A DNA stretch of 35,251 nucleotides from a virus (taxonomy: Duplodnaviria > Caudoviricetes), in the IMG/VR virus record IMGVR_UViG_3300005573_000200, positions 1 to 35,251 of that record; one strand, 5' to 3'. Shown here piece after piece: positions 10,751 through 35,248 of this stretch; positions within the stretch are counted from its first letter, which is position 1; every line of letters begins with the position of its first letter. The notes under the pieces were generated by a model. It did no database searches, was not told the DNA's origin, and saw only the letters and a program-made list of their open reading frames with translations. The position numbers were made by a program, and so were the translations under genes.

Positions 10751-11140
10751 ATGCAAGTAACATTTGATTTGGCAGCATTGCTTGGTCTTGGCGTTTCAGT
10801 TCTTACTATTATAGGATTGTTTATCGAGATTAGTCGATATCGAAAGGAGCGTGAAGAGATGATTCGTAAGCAAACGCAAGAGCAGGATAAAACAGATACA
10901 AAGATTGACCAGATACTTGCAATGTTGAAAGACCTTAAAGAAAACACATGCCTATTATATGAAGCTGTTATTCCATTGCTTGAAGGTCAGAAAGTTTCCT
11001 TAATGAAAATTGCTGAGATGGAATTGAATGGTGATATAAAAAAGGCTTTAGGTGATGTAACTGCAACACAAGATAAATTGATGAAGCATTTGACAAATTC
11101 ATCAGTTGGTGGAACATTCCAGAAGGAGGTTATGCATTGA
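10751..11140 (+). CDS. Putative holin/antiholin-like membrane protein (one N-terminal TM plus coiled coil)
   Basis: Hydrophobic LAALLGLGVSVLTIIGLFI followed by a charged coil; RBS aaggag; overlaps the endolysin start. Confidence 0.55.
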   Translation: MQVTFDLAALLGLGVSVLTIIGLFIEISRYRKEREEMIRKQTQEQDKTDTKIDQILAMLKDLKENTCLLYEAVIPLLEGQKVSLMKIAEMELNGDIKKALGDVTATQDKLMKHLTNSSVGGTFQKEVMH

Positions 11141-11622
11141 GTAGCAAAATTGAAGATTTAGACCTATGTTGCCAAGATGCAGCAAGAAAAACGCTTGATG
11201 CACTTAATGCTGATAGCGAGCTGAAAAACTCTGGTGTTGCTGGGTGGCTTGTCATAGAAACATTACGTCCTATCCAATCACAAATTGCTTACGCTTCACG
11301 ACTCATGGCTTCCTATGTTGAGCAAAAGTATCGTTCTGTTGCACTTGATTTTGTAAAAGCGTGCTACAAATTAGCAAATCTACAAGCTCCACCTGATGGT
11401 GAGTGTTTCAAACCAATTACTTGGACAATGAGAAGTAAGCATCTGGATGGATTAGCAATGGATATTGCACCACTCAAAGCTGATGGGAAAGTATGGTGGG
11501 ATGCACCAATGCATATCTGGATGAGAATGGCAACAATTGCTGAAAGTTATGGGTGGGAAGCTGGAGTTCGCTGGCCTGATGACCAGCAAGATTCACCTCA
11601 CTTGCAATGGAGAGAAAAATGA
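11137..11622 (+). CDS. Endolysin, peptidase M15 family (L-Ala-D-Glu peptidase-like)
   Basis: Zn-ligand motifs SKHLDGLAMD (SxHxxGxAxD) and DSPHLQ; ETLR motif; flanked by membrane protein genes. Confidence 0.88.
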   Translation: MSSKIEDLDLCCQDAARKTLDALNADSELKNSGVAGWLVIETLRPIQSQIAYASRLMASYVEQKYRSVALDFVKACYKLANLQAPPDGECFKPITWTMRSKHLDGLAMDIAPLKADGKVWWDAPMHIWMRMATIAESYGWEAGVRWPDDQQDSPHLQWREK

Positions 11623-11918
11623 GTGCTGGTTTTTTACAGGAGCAAGATGGTTCTAAATCTTCAAGAAGATTATTTGCACTTTACTTTGCATTGCTTTCTG
11701 GTGAGCTATTCAATGTAGGTGCATGGACTGGAAATATGGCTGGGGTATATGGTGGAATGTTCTGTGGGTTTGCTGTGTTAATTTTGAGTGGCTATACAAC
11801 AGTTAGTGAGATAAAAGGATTAGTTACTTCTATTAAATCCAACTATCCGGAAAAACAAGATAGTTCAGAGATTGCTCACTATGTTGATACTACATCAACA
11901 TATGAGCCAAAAAATTGA
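11619..11918 (+). CDS. Putative holin (two TM segments)
   Basis: Likely ATG at 11619 overlapping the endolysin stop (ATGA); DGSKSSRRL followed by two hydrophobic helices and a polar tail. Confidence 0.6.
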   Translation: MSAGFLQEQDGSKSSRRLFALYFALLSGELFNVGAWTGNMAGVYGGMFCGFAVLILSGYTTVSEIKGLVTSIKSNYPEKQDSSEIAHYVDTTSTYEPKN

Positions 11919-11936: not shown

Positions 11937-12170
11937 ATGAAAATTAAGCTGGTTTTTGATGATGGGACTGAAACTGAAATTACTGAGCAGGGGTTGAAAG
12001 AGTTAATGAAAGTATTAAAAGTATTAGGGGATGGAAATAATAAAGAGAAAACAGGAATACCATATGTTATCCCATGGTATCCAACTGAATACCCATATGG
12101 TACTTGGATAGGGCCAGATGGGACATCCCATTATGAAATTCATACACAAGAGTGCTGGGAGGTAACATGA
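11937..12170 (+). CDS. Hypothetical protein
   Basis: 77 aa ORF with strong RBS ggagga; stop overlaps the next start. Confidence 0.6.
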   Translation: MKIKLVFDDGTETEITEQGLKELMKVLKVLGDGNNKEKTGIPYVIPWYPTEYPYGTWIGPDGTSHYEIHTQECWEVT

Positions 12171-12718
12171 ATGAACTATGGAAGAAAATTCCGGTTACTA
12201 TTCGCTATGTTCTTATTGGGTTACTCATTGGCATTGCTATCAGCGCAGGAATCTTTACCATCATTACCAGAAACGAGTTATCTGCTCTCAGAGAGCGACA
12301 AGACAAAGTTATTGCAAGCCTTTCAGCTCTTGGCCGACAAATTGAAGACGGCAACACAAAACTTGCAAGCCTCGGAGCAAGCCTTGCAGGACTTGAAAAA
12401 TCAGTCAGCGATAACGGAACAGCAGTACAAAATATCGCAGGAAAAGTTAGTAGCATTGGAAACAGCATATCAGCAATTGACAAACGAATTGGACTCGTTG
12501 AAGCAAGAGAAGGCGATGTTACTCAGCGACTATCAGAACTTGCAAACAGCTTTAGCGAATTTGGAAAGCAAATATCAGGCTTTGGAGCAAGCATCGAATC
12601 AATTAAAACAGGATTATCAGGCATTACAGGAAGCCTACAAGACGCAAGTAGCATCGTTCAATACATTGAATCAATCATTCAAGGACTACCAGAAATCGGT
12701 TCAGGCACTAAAAAATAA
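12167..12718 (+). CDS. Putative inner-membrane spanin-like protein (N-terminal TM plus coiled coil)
   Basis: ATG at 12167 overlaps the upstream TGA; TM YVLIGLLIGIAISAGIFTII followed by a Ser/Gly-rich heptad coil; downstream of endolysin. Confidence 0.6.
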   Translation: MNELWKKIPVTIRYVLIGLLIGIAISAGIFTIITRNELSALRERQDKVIASLSALGRQIEDGNTKLASLGASLAGLEKSVSDNGTAVQNIAGKVSSIGNSISAIDKRIGLVEAREGDVTQRLSELANSFSEFGKQISGFGASIESIKTGLSGITGSLQDASSIVQYIESIIQGLPEIGSGTKK

Positions 12719-12791
12719 ATCGCTGATACTTGAAATCATCATTGCAGGATTAGCAGCAGGATGGCTACTTGATGTAGTTGGTGTGTTTTAG
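12171..12791 (+). CDS. Overlapping-frame exported coiled-coil protein with C-terminal TM (spanin-like partner)
   Basis: ATG 7 nt after GGAGGT; signal peptide ending ALLSA|QE with no Cys; Gln/Leu-rich heptads; C-terminal ILEIIIAGLAAGWLLDVVGVF. Confidence 0.65.
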   Translation: MNYGRKFRLLFAMFLLGYSLALLSAQESLPSLPETSYLLSESDKTKLLQAFQLLADKLKTATQNLQASEQALQDLKNQSAITEQQYKISQEKLVALETAYQQLTNELDSLKQEKAMLLSDYQNLQTALANLESKYQALEQASNQLKQDYQALQEAYKTQVASFNTLNQSFKDYQKSVQALKNKSLILEIIIAGLAAGWLLDVVGVF

Positions 12792-12829: not shown

Positions 12830-13318
12830 ATGCTATTCATACGAATAGAAAGAAATGTAAAGTCATATGAGTACAAGCAGAATCCAAAAGCAGAAAGTAG
12901 TTATCTAAATAATACAAAAAACAACTTCCTAGATAAATTTGAACTATTTGATGATGAAGCATTACTGTTTGAAGCAAAATGCCAATCTGTAGCTAACTCT
13001 CCAAAAGCAAGATTTTCCAATACTATAGCGGCAGGGCAATTCAATCTTGTGTGTTTTATCAATTTACATAAAGCTAACTATGTAGCTCATGGTATTTGCA
13101 ATACTTCAACACTTGGCTATGAATGGTTAAGTGAAAAAACAGTGAATGAAGACTTCAGCCACAGTATTCACAATAATGAAGAAATGCAGCCAGTGATATG
13201 GAGTACTGGTGATATTATTCTTCATAGAAGTGATTTTGAAGCATTGAATACTATTCTTACAGCATACCATATTACACCATATACATTACTTGATGGGGAA
13301 ATTGTAGACATAGAATAA
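12830..13318 (+). CDS. Hypothetical protein, possibly degenerate L,D-transpeptidase-like fold
   Basis: RBS aaggag; NTIAAGQF ... IH ... WSTGDIIL resembles the H...SxGC motif but has Asp in place of Cys. Confidence 0.45.
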   Translation: MLFIRIERNVKSYEYKQNPKAESSYLNNTKNNFLDKFELFDDEALLFEAKCQSVANSPKARFSNTIAAGQFNLVCFINLHKANYVAHGICNTSTLGYEWLSEKTVNEDFSHSIHNNEEMQPVIWSTGDIILHRSDFEALNTILTAYHITPYTLLDGEIVDIE

Positions 13319-14555: not shown

Positions 14556-15203
14556 TTAATTCTCCTTTACAGTGCTTACTCCATAGGTAGCACCATCAAT
14601 CTCTTCATTTTCTTTTACCACAACAAATGTCTTGTCGGCAATATCTTGCACAAACTCAACATTGTTACTGCTGTTTGAAATAATAATGAATTGAAGTGAT
14701 AATCGTTTTGAAAGTTCCTTTATCACTTGCCACGCCGTTTCCTGCAACGCCGGCGGCTGTATCTTTTGAATCGGCTCATCAAGAATCAGTACATTATCAG
14801 TTTTGCCCAATGACCATGCAGCAATCCGAAGTGCAAGTGAAGCCATATCAACAACACCACCACCTGTTGCTCCATAAGGCCCAACTTCTATCTGATGCCC
14901 ATTCTTTTTGAATACAAATGATGCTTCAGTTTTCTTGTACTTCACTACAAACTCAAGGGAAAAAGTGTATTCATCAGGAAATAGTGCATTTAGCCCAAGG
15001 TTTACTACGTTCTCAATATGAAATTTGAGCTGTTCCTGCGTCTTTTGAGCAACCGTTTGAATGAATGCTTGTGCTTTTTCAAGTGCAATCAATGATTCTT
15101 TCTTGTTATTCATAACAAATTGCTTGTCTGAAAATTGGTTCATAAGGAGTGTCTTTCTACCTTCTGCACGAGCAATCTTCAGCTTATAATCTTCAAGTAT
15201 CAT
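14556..15203 (-). CDS. Rad50/SbcC-like ATPase, C-terminal half
   Basis: Coiled coil, signature-like TGGGVVDMASLALRIA and Walker B LILDEP; no Walker A. Likely ATG at 15203 overlapping the upstream stop. Confidence 0.85.
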   Translation of the reverse strand: MILEDYKLKIARAEGRKTLLMNQFSDKQFVMNNKKESLIALEKAQAFIQTVAQKTQEQLKFHIENVVNLGLNALFPDEYTFSLEFVVKYKKTEASFVFKKNGHQIEVGPYGATGGGVVDMASLALRIAAWSLGKTDNVLILDEPIQKIQPPALQETAWQVIKELSKRLSLQFIIISNSSNNVEFVQDIADKTFVVVKENEEIDGATYGVSTVKEN

Positions 15204-15442
15204 ATAGCACCCCAATCAGTAATTGTTTCAAGTTTATCAAGCAATTCTTGTTTTTCTTCTTTTTTCTCCTTGATGGATGCTTCAATTTCTTCCAGCTTTT
15301 TGAGGCATTCTTCATCATCATTGATAGAAAACTCTCTCTTCCATCGAGAACGAATGTCATCAGTAAGAGCTGATGCTTTGATGTTCTCTTCCTTCATCTT
15401 TGCAATTTTCTGCTTGATTGCTTCGAATGTTCTTGTGTCCAT
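15200..15442 (-). CDS. Small coiled-coil protein within the SbcCD cluster
   Basis: 80 aa Lys/Glu-rich heptads; RBS ggagga. Confidence 0.7.
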   Translation of the reverse strand: MDTRTFEAIKQKIAKMKEENIKASALTDDIRSRWKREFSINDDEECLKKLEEIEASIKEKKEEKQELLDKLETITDWGAI

Positions 15443-15446
15443 TGTG

Positions 15447-16358
15447 TTAGTCCTCCTTTACTTCTTCTTTTGCTTTCTGCACCAATGTATGTATCATTGC
15501 AATAGTTGCTTCATCAAGTGTAGCCTTATTTTCGCTAATTGCCCTTTCAATATTATCTTCTATTGATAGTGTAAAGTTATCCATGCTTTTTGCCATTTCT
15601 ACAAATGCACTAATTCTATCTTCCCTATCTTCTTCAGCTTTAATGTAGGAATCAGTAACAAGTGCAATGTTATCTTCAATGGCAATTTTTTCAATAACCT
15701 CCTTTTCTGTATCAATATAGTAGACAACTGGTTGCTCCATCTCATTTACTTTTTGTCGGTTGAAGTGCCCAGCATTGACCAAATACCGTCCATCTTTTGA
15801 CTTGTACACAAACGATTTGTGCATATCTCCAGTAAATATCCATTTATAGTTTGTAAGTGCATCAAGAAATTCTTGTGCAGTAATTGATTCTCCATTAGGG
15901 GGCATATCTTCTGCACTTTCAAACACAAGCTGATGGGTGAAAAGACAATCACTATTAGGATGCTGAACTTCCTGCCCAAAATGATTATAAGCTACATCAA
16001 GTTCTTTCATTGGTCTAAGATAAGGGCTTTCCATATTCTCTGCAATATGATAGGGGATACTGATGGTAGATTCTTCAAGATGTTCCATTGAATGCCCATA
16101 CAAATCATGGTTTCCAATGATGAAGTACACCCCATACCTTACATGGGTAGTAAATTCAAGAAACATAGAGGAAACTATTTCTGGAACGATAGCACTATTG
16201 AATAAATCCCCACCAATAATGATTGGGCATTTTCGTTTGTTTGCTTCTTCTGCAAGTTGATAGAGTTGATTTTGTTGTGTTTTCATCCAATCACTATCAA
16301 GTCTGCATCGTGGCCTATTTGCACGAAGGTGCATATCTGCGGTAAAGATAAATTTCAT
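15447..16358 (-). CDS. Mre11/SbcD-like (gp47-like) nuclease
   Basis: Likely ATG at 16358 (MKFIFTADMHL); motifs DxH, GGDLF, GNHD, HQ, GDMH, VNAG. Confidence 0.9.
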   Translation of the reverse strand: MKFIFTADMHLRANRPRCRLDSDWMKTQQNQLYQLAEEANKRKCPIIIGGDLFNSAIVPEIVSSMFLEFTTHVRYGVYFIIGNHDLYGHSMEHLEESTISIPYHIAENMESPYLRPMKELDVAYNHFGQEVQHPNSDCLFTHQLVFESAEDMPPNGESITAQEFLDALTNYKWIFTGDMHKSFVYKSKDGRYLVNAGHFNRQKVNEMEQPVVYYIDTEKEVIEKIAIEDNIALVTDSYIKAEEDREDRISAFVEMAKSMDNFTLSIEDNIERAISENKATLDEATIAMIHTLVQKAKEEVKED

Positions 16359-17431
16359 ATTGCACTCCCATTCTTTAATTGTGCCCCACAATATGGGCAG
16401 GTATCAGGTAGTGATTTTTCAAGCTCATGTAGTTTTTCAGTGTTTATCTTGATTGTTTCATTCATATCAATGTACTTCTCATATAAATCATAGAGTGTCT
16501 CATAAAGCTGTGTTTCCTGTTCAATTTTATCTGAAAGCTCATCAATGCTTTCAACTATTTTTGCGGCTTTTTGCGCTTTTTTTGCGCTTGTGAGTATATG
16601 CTGTTGCTCTTGATATGTGCTATAGAGTGATTGCAAAGTATCATATTCTTCTATTTCTTCCTCAATAGCTTCCGTAAGAGTATCAATTTTCTCAACAAGA
16701 GCAACAGCAGAATGCTCAATAGTTTGTGCAATAGATAACTTTTCCTGTGCTTTTGTGTAAGTTGTAAGCATTTCTTGCAGTGTGGTATATATTGTACTAT
16801 CTGCTTCAATTGCTGTTTCAAGTGCATATATTTGAGTTAGCAATTCTTTTGCAGAAGGAATCCAACTATAGGAATCAATCTGTGCCTGCATACGTTGTAG
16901 CTCATGTTCACTTTCCTGAATCTCTTGATTGGTTCTTCTGCGTAGAATCTCTGCTGTGCTTTGAATTTTATCAATCAGCTCAAGATGGATAATTCTGTTC
17001 AAAAACCTTGCTACATCTGCTCCACTATCTCCAAGCAAAAATGGCTTATCAAACTGATACTGAACATTTACATCACTAAGATTCAATTTTTCTAGTACAG
17101 CATCAGGAACAGTTTGCCCAACGGCTTCAAGTACTGTTTCATCTAGTTCATAGCCATTGAAATCACCTGAACGCTTTCGCTTTATTCTTATGCCATTATC
17201 CATTTCAAGAATAACAAACGTGGGCTTTACTGCTTTATCGTTCCTATCTCTGTTCCAAAAACTAACCATGCTCGTTCCAGATGGCTTATTTTTGTGAACC
17301 CAGTAAATACCACGAACAATGCTTGACTTACCATTATCGCTCTTTCCTGATATAATATTTACTCCACTACTCAACTCAAGTTTTGTATCTTTGTGAGATT
17401 CAAAATTTCTAAGATGAATATTCTTAATCAA
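16355..17431 (-). CDS. Rad50/SbcC-like ATPase, N-terminal half ending at zinc hook
   Basis: IHLRNFESH, Walker A GKSDNGKSS, Q-loop QYQFD, coiled coil, terminal CPYCG; TTG start with aggaggt. Confidence 0.9.
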   Translation of the reverse strand: MIKNIHLRNFESHKDTKLELSSGVNIISGKSDNGKSSIVRGIYWVHKNKPSGTSMVSFWNRDRNDKAVKPTFVILEMDNGIRIKRKRSGDFNGYELDETVLEAVGQTVPDAVLEKLNLSDVNVQYQFDKPFLLGDSGADVARFLNRIIHLELIDKIQSTAEILRRRTNQEIQESEHELQRMQAQIDSYSWIPSAKELLTQIYALETAIEADSTIYTTLQEMLTTYTKAQEKLSIAQTIEHSAVALVEKIDTLTEAIEEEIEEYDTLQSLYSTYQEQQHILTSAKKAQKAAKIVESIDELSDKIEQETQLYETLYDLYEKYIDMNETIKINTEKLHELEKSLPDTCPYCGAQLKNGSAI

Positions 17432-24458: not shown

Positions 24459-24677
24459 TATGTACCTTCCTTATATACTATATTATATCACATTTTTTCA
24501 TTCTTTTACTGCTCCAGCCAAATTTTCTATAAAATATTTGTTTGCAAGCAGAAATAAAGCCACAATCATCATATACCATTATGTACCTTCCTTATATACT
24601 ATATTATATCACATTTTTTCATTCTTTTACTGCTCCAGCCAAATTTTCTATAAAATATTTGTTTGCAAGCAGAAATA
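24436..24677. repeat. Perfect 121-bp tandem duplication
   Basis: 24436-24556 is identical to 24557-24677; contains the permease 3' end, promoter motif, RBS and first codons of the next gene. Confidence 0.95.
24477..24494 (-). promoter_or_regulatory. Extended -10 promoter motif (second copy at 24598-24615)
   Basis: AATGTGATATAATATAGT, identical to 17451-17468. Confidence 0.75.
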
Positions 24678-25440
24678 TCATAACTAATGGGAATAGCAAC
24701 AGCACACTTGCTGCAAATGCTTTCCCAATAGGGTTCACATATGAATCGGCATTTTGCCTAAACATAGCAAGACGCATAAGCCCAACAAGCAGTGTTTGCT
24801 TTTCAGCATCTTGCAGTACAAGCATTTGCCATATGTAGTCCTGCAATGAAGCTATACCAGAAAACAATGCTAATGTTGCAACAAGCGGTTTGCTGATAGG
24901 TACAACAATCAGTCGAAGTATCTGAAACTCACTTGCTCCATCCATTCGTGCTGATTCAATCAATGATTTAGGAATAGTATCAAAATAATTCCTTGCAAGA
25001 TACATGTTGATTGGTGAAAACACTAAAGGAAAAATAACAGCAGAAAGTTCACCTTGTATGTTGAGTTTCTTGATAATAGTGTACCACGGAATGATAAGCG
25101 ATATTCTTGGTATCATCATTCCAATAAGTAGTACAACCCAAAGCTGTTTCTTGAACTTGAATGTATACTGGGAAAAAGCATATCCAGCAGTTATTGAAAC
25201 AAATGTTGAAAGAAACACAGTTGCAAACACTACAATAACTGTGTTCTTCAGCCAAACAACCGTGTTCATACTGATGAAATATTTGTAATTTGAAAGTGTA
25301 ACTTGTGGTGGAATGAAAGCAGGTGGCATCTTGATGAAGCCAGAAATATCTTGAAAACTGCCTTCAATCATCCAGTAGAGTGGAAGAAAGAGAAGTAATA
25401 GCAAAAGTGAAAGACTTATCTTTGTAAAAAGATGCTTCAT
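24619..25440 (-). CDS. Carbohydrate ABC transporter permease (MalG/UgpE-like)
   Basis: Six hydrophobic segments; FLPLYWMI, AGYAFS and EAA loop IPKSLIESARMDGASEFQI; likely ATG at 25440. Confidence 0.92.
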   Translation of the reverse strand: MKHLFTKISLSLLLLLLFLPLYWMIEGSFQDISGFIKMPPAFIPPQVTLSNYKYFISMNTVVWLKNTVIVVFATVFLSTFVSITAGYAFSQYTFKFKKQLWVVLLIGMMIPRISLIIPWYTIIKKLNIQGELSAVIFPLVFSPINMYLARNYFDTIPKSLIESARMDGASEFQILRLIVVPISKPLVATLALFSGIASLQDYIWQMLVLQDAEKQTLLVGLMRLAMFRQNADSYVNPIGKAFAASVLLLFPLVMIFLLANKYFIENLAGAVKE

Positions 25441-25613
25441 TCTTCTATTTCTTTGTTCCAGCACTGTTCACAAGTAATGCCACGACAACCTATCCTATTG
25501 CCATGTTCATCCTTCATCTCTGTTCTTTTATCAAAACGAACACCGTCATCAAAATAGTCGTCAGGGCAATGCAAAGTAAGATAATCTTGTATAAGTTGTT
25601 CAAGTTTTGTCAT
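25437..25613 (-). CDS. Small Cys4 zinc-finger protein, paralog 3
   Basis: MTKLE...CPDDYF...IGCRGITCEQCWNKE; likely ATG at 25613; stop overlaps the permease start. Confidence 0.7.
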   Translation of the reverse strand: MTKLEQLIQDYLTLHCPDDYFDDGVRFDKRTEMKDEHGNRIGCRGITCEQCWNKEIEE

Positions 25614-26784: not shown

Positions 26785-27618
26785 CTATACTTCATGCTCA
26801 ACCTTCCTTTTCAGGAGTGAAAGCACAACAACAACACAAAGCAAAAGCACACTTTCTGCTGACGCCATACCCCATTGTGATAGTTTGAATCCCATTGTAT
26901 AGATACAGAATGTTGGAGTATATGCATATTGCTGTGGCACAAGAGCATATATTGTTTCAAAAATTTGCAATGCATTTATCATTGCAAGCAAAGCAACAAG
27001 TGAAAGTGTGGGAAATATCATTGGCAATAGTATTTTCCATTTTATCTGCCGTTCACTTGCACCATCAATCATTGCCGCTTCAATGATACTTTTATCAATG
27101 CTCAGCAAGTTTGCAAGAATAATAATAACAAATGTTCCAAATGAGGAAACTACAACTACAAACACCACAACAGGAATTGCTGTTGCACTTTGCCCAAACC
27201 AGTTTACTTTATCAATGCCAACTAATGATAATAACCAATTTGCTACACCATTTGCTGAGAATATCCAGCGCCATACTTGTGCAATGATAATGCCTGCCGC
27301 TAATACTGGAATGTATACAAGTATTCGTGTGATATCCTGCCATCTTTTATTCAGCTTGAATACTGCGAGAGCAACAGTAACACTCATAAACAAATGCCCA
27401 AATGTTAGCAGAATAACATAGAAAATTGAGTTCTTCATTGACTGCAAGAACATCTCATTGCTGAAAAGTGCTTTGTAGTTATCTAATCCAACAAATGTAG
27501 ATGCTATGAAGTTTGTTTTGTAGAGGCTCATTCTGACAACTTCAAAGATAGGCCATCCAGTAAAAAGCAGAAAGAAAAGTAATGCTGGAAGAAGCAGAAT
27601 GAGTGAAGTTATCTTCAT
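26785..27618 (-). CDS. Carbohydrate ABC transporter permease (MalF/UgpA-like)
   Basis: LLLPALL, FVGLDNY, WRWIF and EAA loop EAAMIDGASERQ; six TM segments. Confidence 0.92.
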   Translation of the reverse strand: MKITSLILLLPALLFFLLFTGWPIFEVVRMSLYKTNFIASTFVGLDNYKALFSNEMFLQSMKNSIFYVILLTFGHLFMSVTVALAVFKLNKRWQDITRILVYIPVLAAGIIIAQVWRWIFSANGVANWLLSLVGIDKVNWFGQSATAIPVVVFVVVVSSFGTFVIIILANLLSIDKSIIEAAMIDGASERQIKWKILLPMIFPTLSLVALLAMINALQIFETIYALVPQQYAYTPTFCIYTMGFKLSQWGMASAESVLLLCVVVVLSLLKRKVEHEV

Positions 27619-27886: not shown

Positions 27887-29140
27887 TTATTTCTTTACTG
27901 AACTCAATGCTTTCTCAAACTTTTCAATAGCTTCCTTCGGAGTAAGTTTGAAAGTAAGTACCTGCTGAAGAATAGGAAACTGCATTGCACGTCTTTCAAC
28001 AAAGCGTGAATCAGTCAGCCCCACATCCTGTAGGCCATTCTTTGCTATAATATCAATAACCTGCTGTGTTTCTGCAAGCTGTGGCTTAGTAGCAACATCA
28101 GTTCTTGCTGAATATACTCCTATTTCCTTTGTGGCTGTTTCAAAGACTTTTGGTGAGTACAGATATTCAAGAAACTTTACTGCAACTTTATCAATATCAG
28201 TTCCAGTTTTATGAATTACTGCTACATTTCCATTGAAGTAAGTAGGCACTTTATCAACACCAGTAGCTCTTGGGAACGGCACATATTTTACTCTAAATGG
28301 TTTTGTAATAATGCCTTGCTTAATTGCAGATTCCCAATATGATGCCATCCAGTTTGGGAAAAATGCTGTTGCAGCAAGCTGTCCTGATGCCCACTGCATT
28401 ACATAGTCATCATCACACAGTGTTGCAGCATTTGGGGGAACATACTCATTCTTAACAAGTGTCTGGTAGAAAGCATATACTTTCTCACCACCATTCTTTG
28501 CAACAAGGGCAGTATCATAATCTCCATTCTCATACCATTTTACCCCAAATGTTGCATACCAGCCATTGATAAGATAATCACCAGACTGATTCGCAGCAAA
28601 CATTCCTGTTGCCCACTTCTTGCCTTTATACTTCTGTTTCACAAGTTCAGCCATCTTCAAAAAGTCATCAACAGTCCAGTTATCAGGAACTTTGTAACCA
28701 ATTTCATCCATAATATCAAGATTGATGCACATTCCCTGTGCTGAACCAAGCCCAGGCAAGCCAAGCACATTGCCATTCTTTGTATACATCTTCAGTGTTG
28801 TTGCATCCCACTTGTCCAAATCTTTGAATACACCATTCAGCGGAAGTGCAAAACCATCAACCATGTACTTGCTTGCTCTCACCATTGAATCATAGTAGAT
28901 ATTTGGTACATTTCCAGCGGCAAGCATAGCATCCATTGTCAGTGAACTTCCATCCGACAAATCAATCTGCAATACTTTGACTTTCACATTCGGAAAGTCT
29001 TTCTTGAGCTGTTCCTCAGCATAAGCAAAATCAGTAGTGTTACCAATTTTTGTTGGCCCCACTGACAGCACAGTAAGAGTTTGCCCAAATACTGCAATAC
29101 CAGCCATGAGCAACATTGCAAGAACAATTGCTTTCTTCAT
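27887..29140 (-). CDS. Carbohydrate ABC transporter substrate-binding protein (SBP family 1)
   Basis: Signal peptide MKKAIVLAMLLMAGIAVFG|Q; LAAGNVPNI, NLDIMDEIG, WTVDDFL and GQLAA patterns; 417 aa; RBS ggaggt. Confidence 0.9.
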   Translation of the reverse strand: MKKAIVLAMLLMAGIAVFGQTLTVLSVGPTKIGNTTDFAYAEEQLKKDFPNVKVKVLQIDLSDGSSLTMDAMLAAGNVPNIYYDSMVRASKYMVDGFALPLNGVFKDLDKWDATTLKMYTKNGNVLGLPGLGSAQGMCINLDIMDEIGYKVPDNWTVDDFLKMAELVKQKYKGKKWATGMFAANQSGDYLINGWYATFGVKWYENGDYDTALVAKNGGEKVYAFYQTLVKNEYVPPNAATLCDDDYVMQWASGQLAATAFFPNWMASYWESAIKQGIITKPFRVKYVPFPRATGVDKVPTYFNGNVAVIHKTGTDIDKVAVKFLEYLYSPKVFETATKEIGVYSARTDVATKPQLAETQQVIDIIAKNGLQDVGLTDSRFVERRAMQFPILQQVLTFKLTPKEAIEKFEKALSSVKK

Positions 29141-30599: not shown

Positions 30600-30860
30600 T
30601 CACTCCTTTGATGTCATTTTCAGAAGAATTGAATCCATGCCAATTGCTGCATACACATCAAGTAGCTTCTCGTTCTCCGTATTTGCTTTAAGTTCAGCAA
30701 TAGCCATTGAACTTGTTTTTCCAGTTTGTAAAATACTTATGTATTGCATCCATACTTCATACAGTGCATGTTCATCAACACCAAAATCTTCAATGATACT
30801 TATATCAGGCTGTACTTTCTCGGTCTGTTTGTTGCTACCGACTTCTCTATTGTTTCCCAT
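30600..30860 (-). CDS. Hypothetical protein
   Basis: 86 aa; GGAGG just before the ATG, which lies inside the recA-like 3' end (61-nt overlap). Confidence 0.5.
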   Translation of the reverse strand: MGNNREVGSNKQTEKVQPDISIIEDFGVDEHALYEVWMQYISILQTGKTSSMAIAELKANTENEKLLDVYAAIGMDSILLKMTSKE

Positions 30861-32026
30861 TTTTCCTCCACCCTTTTCTGAAGCTCTTTCTCCAGATGAT
30901 TGCTTTCAATAAATGAGATTAACTCATTCCGACCCATCTTTGCCATAAACTGTTGATTAAACTTATCTTTCAGCTTTTCATTGTTTGAAAGCCATTCAAC
31001 AACCTCACTTTTCTTCAATGTAGGCTTTACTGTTTTTCTATATTCCTCTTCAACACCATTCTCAATAAGAAATTGTTTTAGGTTTTCAAGATTCAGCTCC
31101 TTTCCATCCCATGATGCTTCTGCTCCTTTTACCAGCTCACCTTTATCTGTTCTAAAATCAAACAGATAATCTAAGTTTGTAGCAATGTCATCAACTCCAT
31201 AATCAAACTTCAAATCAAAGTATATTTCTCTGAATGGCCGTGGTGTTTTGCTCTTCGTTGTTTTTGCTTTGATAGTTGCACCTACTACAATTCCTTTTGC
31301 CTTTACTTTGTTGACCATTGCAAGCCACAATACGGTATGTGCATAAAAGTCCATTGCTTTACCACCAGTACGCACATATTTCTCAAAGCTCATAGGTTCA
31401 ACATTTTCTCTTACTTGTGAGATAATCACAAGTAAACAGTTTGTTTTTTCCAATATCCCAGCCATTTGTGGAAAGAACTCTTGGGAAAGATACTTTGCTT
31501 TTCCCATTCGATAAGAATTTTGCTTTGCCTCTTTTCCCTCCTGTGCTTTTTTGTAGTGTTCATCGGCCAACTCATCAAGCTCTTTTGATGTTAGCCCATC
31601 AAGTGAATCAACACCATAAATACCAACTTCATTTGGCTTCAACGATTCTGCAAAGCTCCGCACATTCACATACAATTCTTCAACAGTACTTGATTTTGTT
31701 CTTTCAGCACTATCTTGTGGCATAATTTCAAATCCATACAAATTTTTTGTATCGAATGTAAACCCGCTTTCGCAGTCATCATACACCCATTTGAAGTTCT
31801 TGCCATACCTGTAGTAGTTTGCTGCAATAAGCTCACACAAAAGAAAACTTTTTGAAGCGGCCTTATCACCCACAATGTTAATAATCTTCCCATATGGATA
31901 ACCATACCCAACACCACCACCTACACATAAATCAAGTAAAAATGAACCAGTTGGAGCATAAAATTGCTTTGGTTTTGTTTCTTCTGTGCCATTCATTATC
32001 ACATTCCTTATCTCATCGGTATTCAT
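30800..32026 (-). CDS. RecA/UvsX-like recombinase
   Basis: TGSFLLDL, GYPYGKIINIVG, Walker A variant GDKAASKS, VDSL, ISQVR, TGGKAMDFYA and YGVD. Confidence 0.9.
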   Translation of the reverse strand: MNTDEIRNVIMNGTEETKPKQFYAPTGSFLLDLCVGGGVGYGYPYGKIINIVGDKAASKSFLLCELIAANYYRYGKNFKWVYDDCESGFTFDTKNLYGFEIMPQDSAERTKSSTVEELYVNVRSFAESLKPNEVGIYGVDSLDGLTSKELDELADEHYKKAQEGKEAKQNSYRMGKAKYLSQEFFPQMAGILEKTNCLLVIISQVRENVEPMSFEKYVRTGGKAMDFYAHTVLWLAMVNKVKAKGIVVGATIKAKTTKSKTPRPFREIYFDLKFDYGVDDIATNLDYLFDFRTDKGELVKGAEASWDGKELNLENLKQFLIENGVEEEYRKTVKPTLKKSEVVEWLSNNEKLKDKFNQQFMAKMGRNELISFIESNHLEKELQKRVEEKWETIEKSVATNRPRKYSLI

Positions 32027-32041
32027 AGCTTTTGCATAATC

Positions 32042-32078
32042 TTGCTAGTAAGTACAATTATATTATACTTACTAGCAA
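32042..32078. promoter_or_regulatory. 13-bp inverted repeat overlapping a TATAAT between ssb and recA-like genes (operator or terminator)
   Basis: ttgctagtaagta (32042-32054) / tacttactagcaa (32066-32078); minus strand reads AGTATAATATAA across arm and loop. Confidence 0.6.
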
Positions 32079-32085
32079 AAAGATA

Positions 32086-33162
32086 CTATTTCTTCAGCTT
32101 TTTTGAAGCTCTGTAGCAATCAGAAAAAACTTCGCAATCATCACATTTTGGGTCAGTTTCACAATCAATTCCAAAGCGAAGCCCATATGGACATTTGTTA
32201 TCTTCAACTTCAACTGGTGCTTTCTTTTGCTTTGCTACAGGCTTCTCTTCATCTTCTTCAACTGGTGCTTTTTTTGGTTTTGCTACAGGCTTATCCTCAT
32301 CTTCATCATCTTCAACTGATGCTTTCTTTGGCTTTGTTACGGGTTTTTCATCTTCCTCCTCATCTTCCTCCTCCTCTTCTTCTTCCTCTTCCTCTTCTTC
32401 CTCAACTGCTACTTCATCTTTTGTTTCACCGTAGTCATCGTCCTCACCATAGAAAAGCTTCTCAATATCCTCATAAGAATGTACTACAAGAAATTCATCA
32501 AGGCTGAGAATATCTTTCTTCAGTGCCTTATCAAGTGGCTCTTCCCTATCCACAAACTTAAATGATTTAAACTCAAAATACTTCTTGCCAGCACCAAAGC
32601 TCTCTTCTGTTGCTCTAAACTGAACTGCTTTCCCATTCCTGAAGTCTACAAAATCAATCGCTTCATCTCCATCACTTGCTGCACCAGCTTCATCCATCAT
32701 TTCCTTATGAAAATTCTTGAAGCTTGCTTGAAAAATCTGTACACCAGCATTTGTATCATCTGCATCAACAATGTTGTAGAATACTCGATGAGAAGGATTC
32801 AGTTTTGATGCTTCATCTTTCTTTCCTTCTTCACGTAGTTTATCTGCCTGCTCGCAGATGGGGCATGGCTTTCCAAAATTGCGTTTGGGGCAAAGAATTT
32901 CAGCACCACTCGGCCCTACAAACTGATGAATCCAAATATCAAGTACAAAATCTTCATCACCTATTTCAGCATCCTTTGAACGAACCAAAGGATGATTCTT
33001 CGTTTTAATTGTATAAGGAAGAATGTTTATAGTATTACGCTTTGATGCTTTTGGCTTCCAAAATTTTACATCTTCTGGAAAGTTCAATGCTCTAGCTCTT
33101 GTTCCAGAACCTTTGTCCCTGTCATGATACCTCTTTTTCAGAATATCTCTCAAATTTGACAT
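32086..33162 (-). CDS. gp32-like single-stranded DNA-binding protein
   Basis: FWKP, INILPY, H..., CPKRNFGKPCPICE and RVFYNIVD; long acidic linker; lies between uvsY-like and recA-like genes. Confidence 0.78.
   Translation of the reverse strand: MSNLRDILKKRYHDRDKGSGTRARALNFPEDVKFWKPKASKRNTINILPYTIKTKNHPLVRSKDAEIGDEDFVLDIWIHQFVGPSGAEILCPKRNFGKPCPICEQADKLREEGKKDEASKLNPSHRVFYNIVDADDTNAGVQIFQASFKNFHKEMMDEAGAASDGDEAIDFVDFRNGKAVQFRATEESFGAGKKYFEFKSFKFVDREEPLDKALKKDILSLDEFLVVHSYEDIEKLFYGEDDDYGETKDEVAVEEEEEEEEEEEEEDEEEDEKPVTKPKKASVEDDEDEDKPVAKPKKAPVEEDEEKPVAKQKKAPVEVEDNKCPYGLRFGIDCETDPKCDDCEVFSDCYRASKKLKK
32202..32403 (-). repeat. Low-complexity poly-Glu tract and three EKPVxKxKKAxVE repeats in SSB
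   Basis: tcttcc/tcctcc runs; tcaactgRtgcttt occurs three times. Confidence 0.85.
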
Positions 33163-33166
33163 TGTG

Positions 33167-33346
33167 TTAGTCCTCCCTGAACTTCATATATTTGATAGTC
33201 TCTTTCTCAAGTGCTGACAGCACTTCCTGTACATTCTGCCCGTCATTGATGGCAGCAGTAAGTTCAATATCCAGCGTTTCATAATTGCCAAGATTGAACT
33301 TCCTTCTAAATGAAACCTCCTTCACTGTAACATCATCAATCTTCAT
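33167..33346 (-). CDS. 59-aa hypothetical protein (not on ORF track)
   Basis: Hand translation MKIDDVTVKEVSFRRKFNLGNYETLDIEL...KFRED; RBS ggaggt. Confidence 0.65.
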   Translation of the reverse strand: MKIDDVTVKEVSFRRKFNLGNYETLDIELTAAINDGQNVQEVLSALEKETIKYMKFRED

Positions 33347-33815
33347 CTTTCATTACCTCCTTTCTTTTCTTCAGCATTTTCCGCACATCACTTGTAGCTA
33401 CATCTGTATCTTTTGCCCCGCCATTTGGTGTAGCATAGAACCCTTTGATAAGAAGCTGTGTCAAGTCATCAAGCATAGAACGCCGATGCTCCATTGCTGA
33501 ACGTGCAGCTTCAAGCGTGTAAACTTCTGCCTGTAGCTGTCGTACTTCTTCCTTTACTGCCAGCACATCTTTATGCATGGTAACTTTTGCAGCAACACCA
33601 GCCTCCGTCATCTTTCCATCAGCATCTTGATTCCATGTTGCTCTGATAGTGCTTTCAACTTCAGCAAGCAACAGTTTGAGTTTGTCGTTTGCTGCATCTA
33701 CTTTTGCTTTTGCTGTAGCAAGTGCATCAGCAACTTGATGGTACAGCCCAGCATGTTCCTGGCACTCATCAGGAAGTCTGTATTTGTTAATCTTCACCAT
33801 CTCTGCAAAGTTCAT
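33336..33815 (-). CDS. UvsY-like recombination mediator (coiled coil)
   Basis: Helical protein with KMTEAGVAAKV and MEHRRSMLDDL; synteny with ssb and recA-like genes. Confidence 0.6.
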   Translation of the reverse strand: MNFAEMVKINKYRLPDECQEHAGLYHQVADALATAKAKVDAANDKLKLLLAEVESTIRATWNQDADGKMTEAGVAAKVTMHKDVLAVKEEVRQLQAEVYTLEAARSAMEHRRSMLDDLTQLLIKGFYATPNGGAKDTDVATSDVRKMLKKRKEVMKDED

Positions 33816-34276
33816 TCGTCCGTCTCCTCCTCATATTCATCAAACATTTCATCAAACTCATCATCAACCATGTCTCCATCAATGAATGGTTCATCCTCTT
33901 CGATGTCTGGCTCATCTTCATTTGTGTCAAATTCTTCCTCATCAAGAAAATCATCTTCTAAATCTTCCATAGGTTTCTCCTTTTCTGGGTCTATTAAACT
34001 ATTAGCTAACTCAATCTGCACCTTGCCCCCATTTCTCTTTGCTTTGATTGCAGCAGCAGAAAGCTGCAATTTTGAATCCGTCTTTCTTTCTTTTGGTAAA
34101 ACATTTCCAGCCAACTTTACAATATATGCAAGAATTGATTCAAACTTCTTAGTTTCAGTTTTTGTAAAATCAGTCCCATTCTTTCCAGCAGTCAGCTTAA
34201 TTCCAAAGTAAGTAGCTATCTCTCGAACTAATGTAATAGGAACTTGATACTTTTCTGAAAGCTCTTTACTTGTCAT
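33812..34276 (-). CDS. Hypothetical protein with N-terminal HTH-like region and acidic tail
   Basis: MTSKELSEKYQVPITLVREIA; Asp/Glu-rich C-terminal ~45 aa. Confidence 0.6.
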   Translation of the reverse strand: MTSKELSEKYQVPITLVREIATYFGIKLTAGKNGTDFTKTETKKFESILAYIVKLAGNVLPKERKTDSKLQLSAAAIKAKRNGGKVQIELANSLIDPEKEKPMEDLEDDFLDEEEFDTNEDEPDIEEDEPFIDGDMVDDEFDEMFDEYEEETDE

Positions 34277-34297
34277 TTGCTCACTCCTTCTTATACA

Positions 34298-34313
34298 TAT
34301 ATTATATCACATT
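34298..34313 (-). promoter_or_regulatory. Extended -10 promoter motif AATGTGATATAATATA
   Basis: 16-nt match to the copies at 17451 and 24477; upstream of RBS aaggag. Confidence 0.75.
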
Positions 34314-34315
34314 CT

Positions 34316-35248
34316 TTAAGAAATTGTTCGCAAACATGCTAAAGTTATTCCAAATTTTCCATTATTGTAGGTTGGCTCGGAAAAAGCTTCAAGAGCCAGC
34401 ATTGCTCGTGGACTTTTCTTTCCATTCAAAAGCACTGCATTCATGTAGCCAAGCACTGCATACCGCACATTTTCTGAATCAGTAAGCTTGCCATTTGCTG
34501 AAAGTTTCTTCAATAGAGATGCAATAGCTATCCAGTTACTTCTCTCATCAAGCAATGCTCTGCATAGCTCAATCACTTCAGCATCATCTTCTGTAATATG
34601 GTTATGCTTGATAAACTTTATCTGTTCTGCTTCATCAAGCTCTATTACTTGTTCAAGCAATACTAATGCTCTTCGTGGGCAGCCATCTGAAGCTAGTGCA
34701 ATTTCTTCAAGCACTTCTTGTGAAATTGAAAGTTCTTCAAGTTTTATTACTCTTTTCAGCAATTTTACAAGCTGTTCTTCCTTCAAAAGCAAAAACTTCA
34801 CTTCTGTACATCGTGTTTTCAGTGCAGGTATCAGCTTTTGTGTATCAGTTGTACAAAGAATAAAGTAGACATGAGCAGGAGTTTCTTCGAGCGGCCTGAG
34901 CATAGCATTTTGGAAGTCTGCAGTTGTTTTCTGACATTCTTCAATAATATAAACAGTACAATCACCAGACATCGGTGTCATTCTCATCTGCTGAATAATC
35001 TCTCGTGCAGTATCAATACCTCTGTTATTTGAAGAATTTATCTCGTGAATATCAATATCATCTGCTCCAAGTTTCTTTGCAATGATTCGTGCTGTGGTAG
35101 ACTTCCCAGTGCCGGCTGGCCCAGAAAGAAGGAATACGTGTGGCCTATCCTTTCTCTCAAGCAATGATTGAAGCGATTGCAGGGCAAGTTCATTGCCAAT
35201 CATCTCACTGAAATCAGTTGGTCGATACCTCAAATACAAACTAGCCAT
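34316..35248 (-). CDS. dnaX: Clamp loader AAA+ ATPase, DNA polymerase III gamma/tau-like
   Basis: LYLRYRP, Walker A GPAGTGKST, NRGID, Walker B variant IIEECQ, LEETP, FILCTT and KTRC arginine finger. Confidence 0.88.
   Translation of the reverse strand: MASLYLRYRPTDFSEMIGNELALQSLQSLLERKDRPHVFLLSGPAGTGKSTTARIIAKKLGADDIDIHEINSSNNRGIDTAREIIQQMRMTPMSGDCTVYIIEECQKTTADFQNAMLRPLEETPAHVYFILCTTDTQKLIPALKTRCTEVKFLLLKEEQLVKLLKRVIKLEELSISQEVLEEIALASDGCPRRALVLLEQVIELDEAEQIKFIKHNHITEDDAEVIELCRALLDERSNWIAIASLLKKLSANGKLTDSENVRYAVLGYMNAVLLNGKKSPRAMLALEAFSEPTYNNGKFGITLACLRTIS

Follow-up and report, generated by a model that had tools for sequence, protein, structure and literature searches.

The window, by which we mean the whole stretch of DNA analysed here (the full 35,251-nt linear virus record, which is about 48% complete), carries two long genes written almost end to end over the same bases, and the sequence comparisons below indicate that both frames are real, conserved dual coding. 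The pair most likely works like a two-component spanin, outside the o- and u-spanin families. We refer to the overlapped pair as ORF A and ORF B, and use L for loci, X for runs and P for related proteins. The two genes and their start region are arranged as follows:

11937 to 12170, + strand: 77-aa ORF that varies among relatives and whose TGA stop overlaps the ORF A ATG
12158 to 12163, + strand: single Shine-Dalgarno sequence GGAGGT, 3 nt before the ORF A ATG and 7 nt before the ORF B ATG
12167 to 12718, + strand: ORF A, 183 aa, i-spanin-like, predicted to be a type II protein of the inner membrane with a coil rich in Gly, Ser and Ala
12171 to 12791, + strand: ORF B, 206 aa, with a predicted signal peptidase I (SPase I) signal, a Gln/Leu/Tyr coil and a C-terminal hydrophobic tail

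ORF B lies in the +1 frame relative to ORF A, and the sequence bears out the first-pass annotation, which had described one GGAGGT serving starts at 12167 and 12171 (GGAGGT AAC ATG A ATG) and an overlap of 548 nt (12171-12718). The duplex of the Shine-Dalgarno sequence with an assumed anti-Shine-Dalgarno sequence was computed at -11.6 kcal/mol. The TGA of the 77-aa ORF (12168-12170) abuts the ORF B ATG and overlaps that of ORF A, so that this upstream stop inside ATGA provides, through translational coupling or reinitiation, a second possible route to both starts. The Shine-Dalgarno sequence is also the left border of a module: contigs of runs X4 and X8 diverge from the upstream DNA of the window exactly at its first base, 12158, and L018, which has a different version of the 77-aa ORF, differs there too, indicating that the dual gene moves as a module. 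A longer ORF A beginning at GTG 12152 was rejected, since this codon is missing in L018 and is too near the Shine-Dalgarno sequence, and a scan for promoters and terminators returned nothing exceeding shuffled sequence.

The openness of the two frames was compared with that of recoded sequences. With the ORF B protein fixed and its codons redrawn, the ORF A frame averaged 16.4 stops and was open in none of 20,000 recodings; with the ORF A protein fixed, the ORF B frame averaged 13.3 stops and was likewise never open (0/20,000), and uniform codon use gave 0/5,000 in each direction. Silent recoding of either protein is expected to give 9-16 stops in the other frame, and none of the 50,000 window trials left it open; for loci L008 and L015 of the second clade described below, the result was 0/5,000 in each direction. 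Across 20 other genes of the window, alternative frames on the same strand reach 84 codons at most. When the other frame was forced open, the heptad signal of ORF A was reached in 0/2,000 recodings of the window and 0/1,000 each of L008 and L015, with identical counts for the heptad signal of ORF B, and the hydrophobicity of the ORF A transmembrane segment was reached in 14/2,000, 0/1,000 and 0/1,000, respectively. Under this null, the absence of Pro is strong evidence in clade 2 (0/1,000), but in the window it is weaker, being matched by 73 and 201 of 2,000 recodings, and the hydrophobicity of the ORF B signal in the window falls within expectation (553/2,000). The heptads and the transmembrane segment of ORF A are under selection. 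Under the coding rule seen here, the hydrophobic core in one frame arises from Leu written as TTR and Tyr written as TAY in the other. At the two core heptad positions of ORF B, 19 of 20 Leu codons are TTR, against a genome share of 0.39, and in the pooled, non-independent clade-2 rows TTR accounts for 202/231 Leu at core positions versus 2/35 elsewhere; because TTR in the ORF B frame puts a hydrophobic residue in ORF A, the two coils are phase-locked through these leucines.

Relatives of the pair fall into two clades. Our metagenome scan yielded 18 loci, including the window's own sequence (L001), and L019 and L020 came from viral and genome collections. Among the 19 loci besides the window, 17 have neither frame interrupted, a count that covers the contig DNA present, three loci ending at contig edges and L019 repeating the L007 proteins. 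The conservation of both frames that the first-pass annotation had put forward as a check was thus mostly found, a stop in L003 and a frameshift in L018 excepted. The 14 clade-2 loci share 47-51% identity with the window in ORF B and 32-38% in ORF A, and all 14 start GGAGG-AAC(G/A)-ATGTG, where ORF B begins at the ATG and ORF A at the GTG 2 nt further along, an order opposite to that in the window. A separate ORF A homologue, P0004, shows 41% identity. Four more contigs carry 8-14 substitutions across the ORFs and no stops (0/4), and in X12 the start region contains an in-frame duplication of 9 nt, where inspection by hand found both frames open. A second X12 record, from a diverged relative, has 259 letters versus 238 over window positions 12430-12669, the additional 21 nt being equal to one heptad; the evidence for this insertion is weak, as its anchors measure only 21-38 nt. 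Two 151-nt pieces of run X18, the RNA status of which is a guess, were left out. Contigs with the stretch come from groundwater, wastewater, hydrocarbon, sludge and sediment metagenomes.

A profile search uncovered more distant B-like proteins, and five of the eight examined begin with MC or MW, versus 3 of 96 generic coil matches; such a beginning means that ATGTG is forced. Coil lengths in this group differ by whole heptads (P0009 by +14 relative to the window, P0016 by +21 relative to P0014). Seven of the related proteins (P0008, P0009, P0011, P0014, P0016, P0038 and P0083) are represented here by protein sequence only; viral contigs scanned with P0009, the P0016 group, the 162-aa neighbour and both ORFs yielded no DNA of distant B homologues, and two alignment scans for such DNA returned the L019 record only. 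P0115, from the P0012 cluster, proved unrelated.

ORF B is the more constrained frame, with pN/pS of 0.25-0.31, the values for ORF A being 0.84 and 1.00 within clades and 1.29 between them, so that this simple ratio gives no sign of selection on ORF A. Suppression of synonymous variation, another proposed check, is seen against the ORF B-only tail (ORF B-silent divergence of 0.22-0.24 vs 0.46-0.48, the tail offering only 12 sites), yet the ORF B-silent divergence equals that of a control gene lying upstream (0.200 vs 0.207). Changes that also alter ORF A occur at roughly half to two-thirds the frequency of ORF A-silent ones (0.042 vs 0.089, and 0.066 vs 0.095 at B-changing sites, in pairs that are not independent). 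Each of 15 sequences has 17-23 possible single ORF B-silent changes that would stop ORF A, and none carries such a stop; ORF B-silent sites differ at 65% between the clades. We consider it almost certain that both proteins are made.

The two exceptions fall at one point:

12264 to 12267, + strand: anchor/coil junction, site of the changes in L003 and L018

L003 has a TAA at ORF B codon 32 and a whole ORF A. In L018 and run X9, a 1-nt deletion at 12267 joins the ORF A transmembrane segment to the ORF B coil and tail, with loss of the ORF A coil and no compensating indel up to 12755; the X9 contig has a depth of 9. Because L018 and X9 share all 8 substitutions as well as the deletion, they represent one haplotype seen twice, which may be a dead allele. 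This natural fusion of the ORF A anchor with the ORF B coil and tail is newly noted in this analysis. A programmed frameshift from ORF A into ORF B at the junction was dropped as an explanation, no slippery site being kept between the clades by eye.

The architecture predicted for the two proteins is as follows:

12209 to 12265, + strand: ORF A transmembrane segment, residues 15-33, with invariant G18, G22 and G28, coded over the ORF B signal peptide
12278 to 12682, + strand: Pro-free coiled coil of ORF A, covering residues 38-172 in about 19-20 heptads
12171 to 12245, + strand: ORF B signal peptide, residues 1-25, with predicted cleavage before an invariant Q-E-S and without a lipobox
12291 to 12713, + strand: unbroken helix of ORF B in the AlphaFold2 model, spanning residues 41-181, with about 20 heptads and a length of about 21 nm
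12723 to 12788, + strand: ORF B tail, single-coded, 12 apolar residues between invariant E188 and D201

Computed hydrophobicity and periodicity agree with the earlier reading of an N-terminal transmembrane segment and heptad coil in ORF A and of a signal, coil and hydrophobic C-terminus in ORF B. ORF A has one hydrophobic segment (residues 17-33, Kyte-Doolittle 2.5) and a basic N-terminus, ORF B has two such segments (residues 9-25 and 189-205), and both proteins display a sharp 3.5-residue periodicity. The ORF B cleavage site was read by eye from the conserved A-Q-E-S, A25, Q26, E27 and S28 being invariant in 17/17 alignment rows. AlphaFold2 places helices at residues 3-24, 41-181 and 187-204 of ORF B, with pLDDT 82-94 over residues 51-170; the model of ORF A was helical but unreliable (pLDDT 43) and was discarded. 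The ORF B tail (Kyte-Doolittle 2.2) contains invariant G197-W198, G204 and terminal F206, ending G-V-F with no basic residue behind, and its rough membrane-insertion sums, obtained with assumed scale values, range from +2.4 to +4.3 kcal/mol; the tails of the P0014 and P0083 proteins and of a phage TJE1 protein described below score like ordinary transmembrane segments.

The first-pass annotation had stated that neither protein contains Cys, which holds for the window but not for the clade-2 relatives, where Cys occurs inside hydrophobic segments. These positions are not conserved and lie outside any lipobox, the P-L-C-A Cys of some clade-2 ORF B rows being F or S in others, and a lipoprotein signal at these Cys was accordingly rejected. 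Neither protein has a family in the Pfam, PHROGs or NCBIfam lists, where the weak matches are generic coils (tape-measure, SMC) and no spanin family covers the pair. A Foldseek search of the ORF B model against BFVD gave no match at E <= 0.001, tblastn of ORF B against 50,697 phage records gave none, and the best score of an ESM Atlas search with ORF A was 0.81, a lead only.

Tail genes occupy the + strand of the window up to 10626 and are followed by the genes that flank the pair:

10751 to 11140, + strand: holin-like 129-aa protein with one N-terminal transmembrane segment and a helical C-terminus, assigned by position
11137 to 11622, + strand: endolysin, Peptidase_M15_4 (PF13539, 29.2 bits, above the cut-off; PHROG 465 endolysin, E 9e-9)
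11607 to 11918, + strand: 103-aa small membrane protein, a putative holin or antiholin
12830 to 13318, + strand: 162-aa protein (PHROG 26752), homologue of TJE1 orf48, adjoining the pair downstream

The 129-aa protein has no Pfam match above the cut-off, and a 100-aa protein of like build takes its place in clade 2, where the endolysin counterpart scores 44.1 bits against Pfam M15_4. The 103-aa protein belongs to no family in the Pfam, PHROGs or NCBIfam lists, and an apparently unrelated 88-aa membrane protein takes its place in clade 2. The upstream order in clade 2 (L015, L016, L017 and L019) is a small membrane gene, the M15_4 endolysin and another membrane gene. ORF A and ORF B close the lysis cassette after the endolysin in both clades while the neighbours differ, and the earlier reading of a lysis pair is supported to that extent. 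The linkage to holin and endolysin genes that marks two-component spanins is present, the holins being recognised by build and position only. Given this context, the pair very probably has a lysis role.

Other features of these loci deserve mention. In clade 2 (L016:1118-1145), both starts lie within the 88-aa membrane gene, an overlap of about 28 nt that brings three frames into use. Neither the 162-aa protein (12830-13318) nor TJE1 orf48 (L022:5220-5780) has a Pfam match; orf48, which sits at the expected endolysin place, has a C-terminal H...WSAGC that we take to be an L,D-transpeptidase-like motif, and the window homologue reads WSTGD at a like position. Just upstream of the clade-2 lysis cassette, L019:3064-4773 carries Avd (PF22296) and reverse transcriptase (PF00078) genes, adjoined by a 523-aa tail-like gene and likely constituting a diversity-generating retroelement. 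On the - strand of the window, 14556-17431 and 30800-35248 hold SbcC/SbcD-like genes, the SbcC-like part apparently in separate ORFs, together with RecA-like, gp32-like and DnaX-like genes.

According to the main text of the spanin survey (Kongari 2018, PMC6139136), o- and u-spanins are defined by a lipoprotein signal, spanins are absent in 91 of 677 genomes, membrane fusion is the accepted outcome for lambda spanins, and other topologies, which the survey would miss, are named as possible spanins, a type I inner-membrane protein being one that could serve as an i-spanin. By prediction, ORF A has the build of an i-spanin, a type II protein with an N-terminal transmembrane segment and a periplasmic helical domain. 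Its partner, without a lipobox, is not the outer-membrane lipoprotein expected of such a pair. ORF B does have the gene position of an o-spanin, in frame +1/-1 of the i-spanin gene or adjacent to it (+1 in the window, clade 2 and TJE1); it has neither the lipoylated Cys at +1 of a lipobox that marks o-spanins nor the N-terminal lipoprotein signal of u-spanins. Since no lipobox is conserved, ORF B is neither an o-spanin nor a u-spanin, and the initial distinction of the pair from Rz1 and u-spanins survives the lipoprotein test, which ORF B failed. No lipoprotein candidate was found on a coding strand of the 35-kb fragment by a scan that finds lambda Rz1, and, the record being about 48% complete, a canonical o-spanin could lie elsewhere.

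Like the genes of lambda Rz/Rz1, P2 LysB/LysC and LambdaSo Rz/Rz1, those of the window pair are the last of the lysis cassette and include one for a type II coiled-coil inner-membrane protein, and, as in overlapped and embedded spanins, the second gene is in the +1 frame and extends past the end of the first. Unlike in these systems, ORF B has no lipobox or conserved Cys, its coil spans 140 residues and ends in a hydrophobic tail, and the window pair lacks periplasmic Cys for disulfides. Furthermore, the starts are only 4 nt apart (-2 nt in clade 2), whereas in the main text of the survey the second start lies at about 0.4-0.5 of the i-spanin length in about 70% of embedded pairs (PMC6139136), a comparison to which the SpaninDB tables could add pairs with closer starts. 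For LambdaSo, part of a preprint (bioRxiv 10.1101/2024.01.23.576932) describes extensive nesting, a classical lipoprotein Rz1 starting at nt 340 and the requirement for an extra inner-membrane lysis factor, Lcc6. The u-spanins, of the T1 gp11 type (PMC6139136), share with ORF B an N-terminal signal and a C-terminal hydrophobic segment and with the L018/X9 fusion allele an anchor at each end; ORF B differs in having an SPase I-type signal without a lipoylated Cys and a dedicated partner on the same bases. A literature search, mostly of papers outside subscription and thus exclusive of the TJE1 paper, returned no account of a lipobox-free, co-started pair.

Indications of the host come from several sources and are mixed. 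The window carries an ABC sugar-type transporter set on the - strand, with a solute-binding protein at 27887-29140 and permease-like ORFs at 26785-27618 and 24619-25464. The solute-binding protein, which has 174 homologues at E <= 1e-20, many of them on 30-100 kb contigs, may represent a phage-borne family. It has a plain signal peptide without a lipobox, and the lipobox pattern occurs in 4 of 120 homologues and is absent in 116, an absence that would be expected for a diderm host. Several homologues begin with FASGGSEK or FANGESE, that is, with N-termini of the FAxGxxE type, which we assume to be spirochaete style. The Atlas look-alikes stem from diderm phyla, and the sole GTDB genome with the pair (G001) is a MAG titled Pseudomonadota, with the pair on a 2.6-kb contig; 40 relatives of this genome gave no match to the pair. 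Judging from these sequences, the host is quite probably diderm, with a slight lean towards a spirochaete.

The 162-aa neighbour led to a comparable arrangement in an isolated phage, since it matches orf48 of Tetrasphaera phage TJE1, behind which the GenBank annotation has a gap of 1.7 kb:

HQ225832.1, 37083-37586 and 37088-37498: TJE1 pair of 167 aa and 136 aa, unannotated in the GenBank record

The TJE1 pair, newly noted here, resembles that of the window in combining a signal-helix-tail protein (167 aa, with a Gly-rich hydrophobic tail) with a TM-helix protein (136 aa) in the same relative frame, with starts 5 nt apart, and in following a small membrane ORF (75 aa) and the homologue of window 12830-13318. 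However, it is shorter, has a weak heptad signal, no clear Shine-Dalgarno sequence and no detectable homology to the window pair (hhalign probability 0.1-0.3%), and fares less well against chance (35 and 680 of 10,000 recodings open, in GC-rich DNA). A rule-based architecture scan, partly circular because its thresholds were set after these pairs were seen, detected exactly one pair in each of four sequences, namely the window, L002, L019 and the full TJE1 genome, and no pair in lambda 40-48.5 kb, LE1 25-73 kb, LE3, B124-14, KHP30 and Petty or in 50 resampled sequences. With no match in these six control records, the architecture does not explain the spanin-less control phages. We regard the TJE1 pair as an analogue and a lead, not as a proven member. 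TJE1 is recorded on the actinobacterium Tetrasphaera jenkinsii, a host that speaks against a role tied strictly to the outer membrane.

Beyond the pair, L021:6537-7994 (TJE1 36859-38316) contains at least four plausible ORFs absent from the GenBank annotation, namely, both members of the dual-frame pair, the 75-aa membrane protein and a protein that begins MKNKWFLL and has a signal peptide, and a + strand ORF at L021:8350-8745, opposite annotated orf49, looks secreted. The TJE1 locus has a GC content of 58%, and the recorded host may deserve a check; a passage of an earlier study notes that this phage carries attC cassette arrays (PMC9892861). In Leptospira phages LE1 and LE3, the lysis region ends with a transmembrane protein and a likely lipoprotein (L026:28939-29663; L027:33179-33840), both annotated as unknown, the latter having a C-terminal Gly-rich hydrophobic tail and a u-spanin-like topology.

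We propose that ribosomes on the one Shine-Dalgarno sequence, or reinitiating after the upstream stop, pick either start, so that both proteins would be produced together. The ORF A protein would be held in the inner membrane by its N-terminal transmembrane segment, with a coil of about 20 nm outside, and the ORF B protein would be exported by Sec and cleaved before QES. Being a marginal stop-transfer segment, with two acids and no basic residue behind, the ORF B tail would be released and enter the outer membrane, where it would stand in for the lipid anchor. Once the endolysin has removed the wall, the equal-length coils would zip antiparallel and fuse the membranes, and, given that ORF A is anchored N-terminally and ORF B C-terminally, such a zipper would gather both anchors at one end. 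In class I viral fusion hairpins and SNAREs, two coils likewise zip and bring anchors in two membranes together, an analogy only, with no sequence or fold match to the pair. The parts of this scheme differ in strength: binding between the two proteins is probable; an outer-membrane step in a diderm is reasonably probable; and placement of the ORF B tail in the outer membrane with antiparallel zipping is possible but somewhat doubtful. As a whole, we somewhat favour a reading of the pair as an analogue of two-component spanins that does without a lipoprotein and acts in a diderm host, probably a spirochaete.

Other readings share much of this evidence. Both proteins could stay in the inner membrane, ORF A as a type II and ORF B as a type I protein, and form a heteromeric rod that aids lysis there by partnering a holin, setting the timing or remodelling the membrane, with no need for an outer membrane. 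By Kyte-Doolittle the ORF B tail is hydrophobic enough for this, the recorded host of TJE1 is an actinobacterium, LambdaSo needs the inner-membrane factor Lcc6 (part of bioRxiv 10.1101/2024.01.23.576932), and the i-spanin part could be taken by a type I protein of the inner membrane (PMC6139136, main text). Nevertheless, we consider such a rod unlikely: the cassette already has two holin candidates, two length-matched coils of about 21 nm suit a periplasmic bridge, and the solute-binding protein points to a diderm. It is more improbable still that the ORF B coil and tail are the active unit, a lipid-free u-spanin-like chain that ORF A tethers or inhibits until the wall is gone. The stronger constraint on ORF B (pN/pS 0.25-0.31), the L018/X9 allele, in which the ORF A transmembrane segment is joined to the ORF B coil and tail and the ORF A coil is missing, and the LE1/LE3 lysis region, ending with a likely lipoprotein with a Gly-rich C-terminal hydrophobic tail, would fit this reading; yet L018/X9 is a single haplotype and may be dead, L003 shows the opposite loss, with ORF B stopped and ORF A whole, and the ORF A heptads and transmembrane segment are selected.

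Were the pair instead a membrane system that serves DNA entry or superinfection exclusion, placed at the end of the late operon and unconnected with lysis, this would account for the missing family match and the weak matches to generic coils only. We hold such a system to be very improbable, as in both clades the pair comes straight after the endolysin and small membrane genes although the neighbours differ, and a virion protein would not be expected to carry a signal peptide. Finally, if ORF B were the sole gene and the ORF A frame were open through ORF B composition, an ORF A pN/pS near 1 and the low pLDDT (43) of its model would be expected, but this explanation is refuted at the sequence level by the recodings (0/20,000 keep ORF A open), by the lack, in all 15 sequences, of any of the 17-23 possible ORF B-silent stops and by the ORF A start kept beside the Shine-Dalgarno sequence in both clades, leaving it next to no credibility.

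The preferred reading, a lipoprotein-free analogue of two-component spanins, is made testable by TJE1 and by complementation of lambda Rz/Rz1. Apart from function, the pair is a clear example of one stretch of DNA that serves, over nearly its full length, to encode two long structured proteins, under a coding rule that can be read from the codons. Tentatively, and with the odds against it, the pair could typify a third spanin class, also present in TJE1, with co-coded rods of about 20 heptads, a protein tail in place of the lipid, antiparallel zipping and a one-deletion step to a unimolecular form. If true, a protein tail can replace the lipid anchor, and the single-base deletion that turns the pair into a two-anchor chain represents a natural step between two-component and unimolecular spanins. 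Lipid-free, fully overlapped pairs of this kind escape gene callers and would fill part of the spanin gap.
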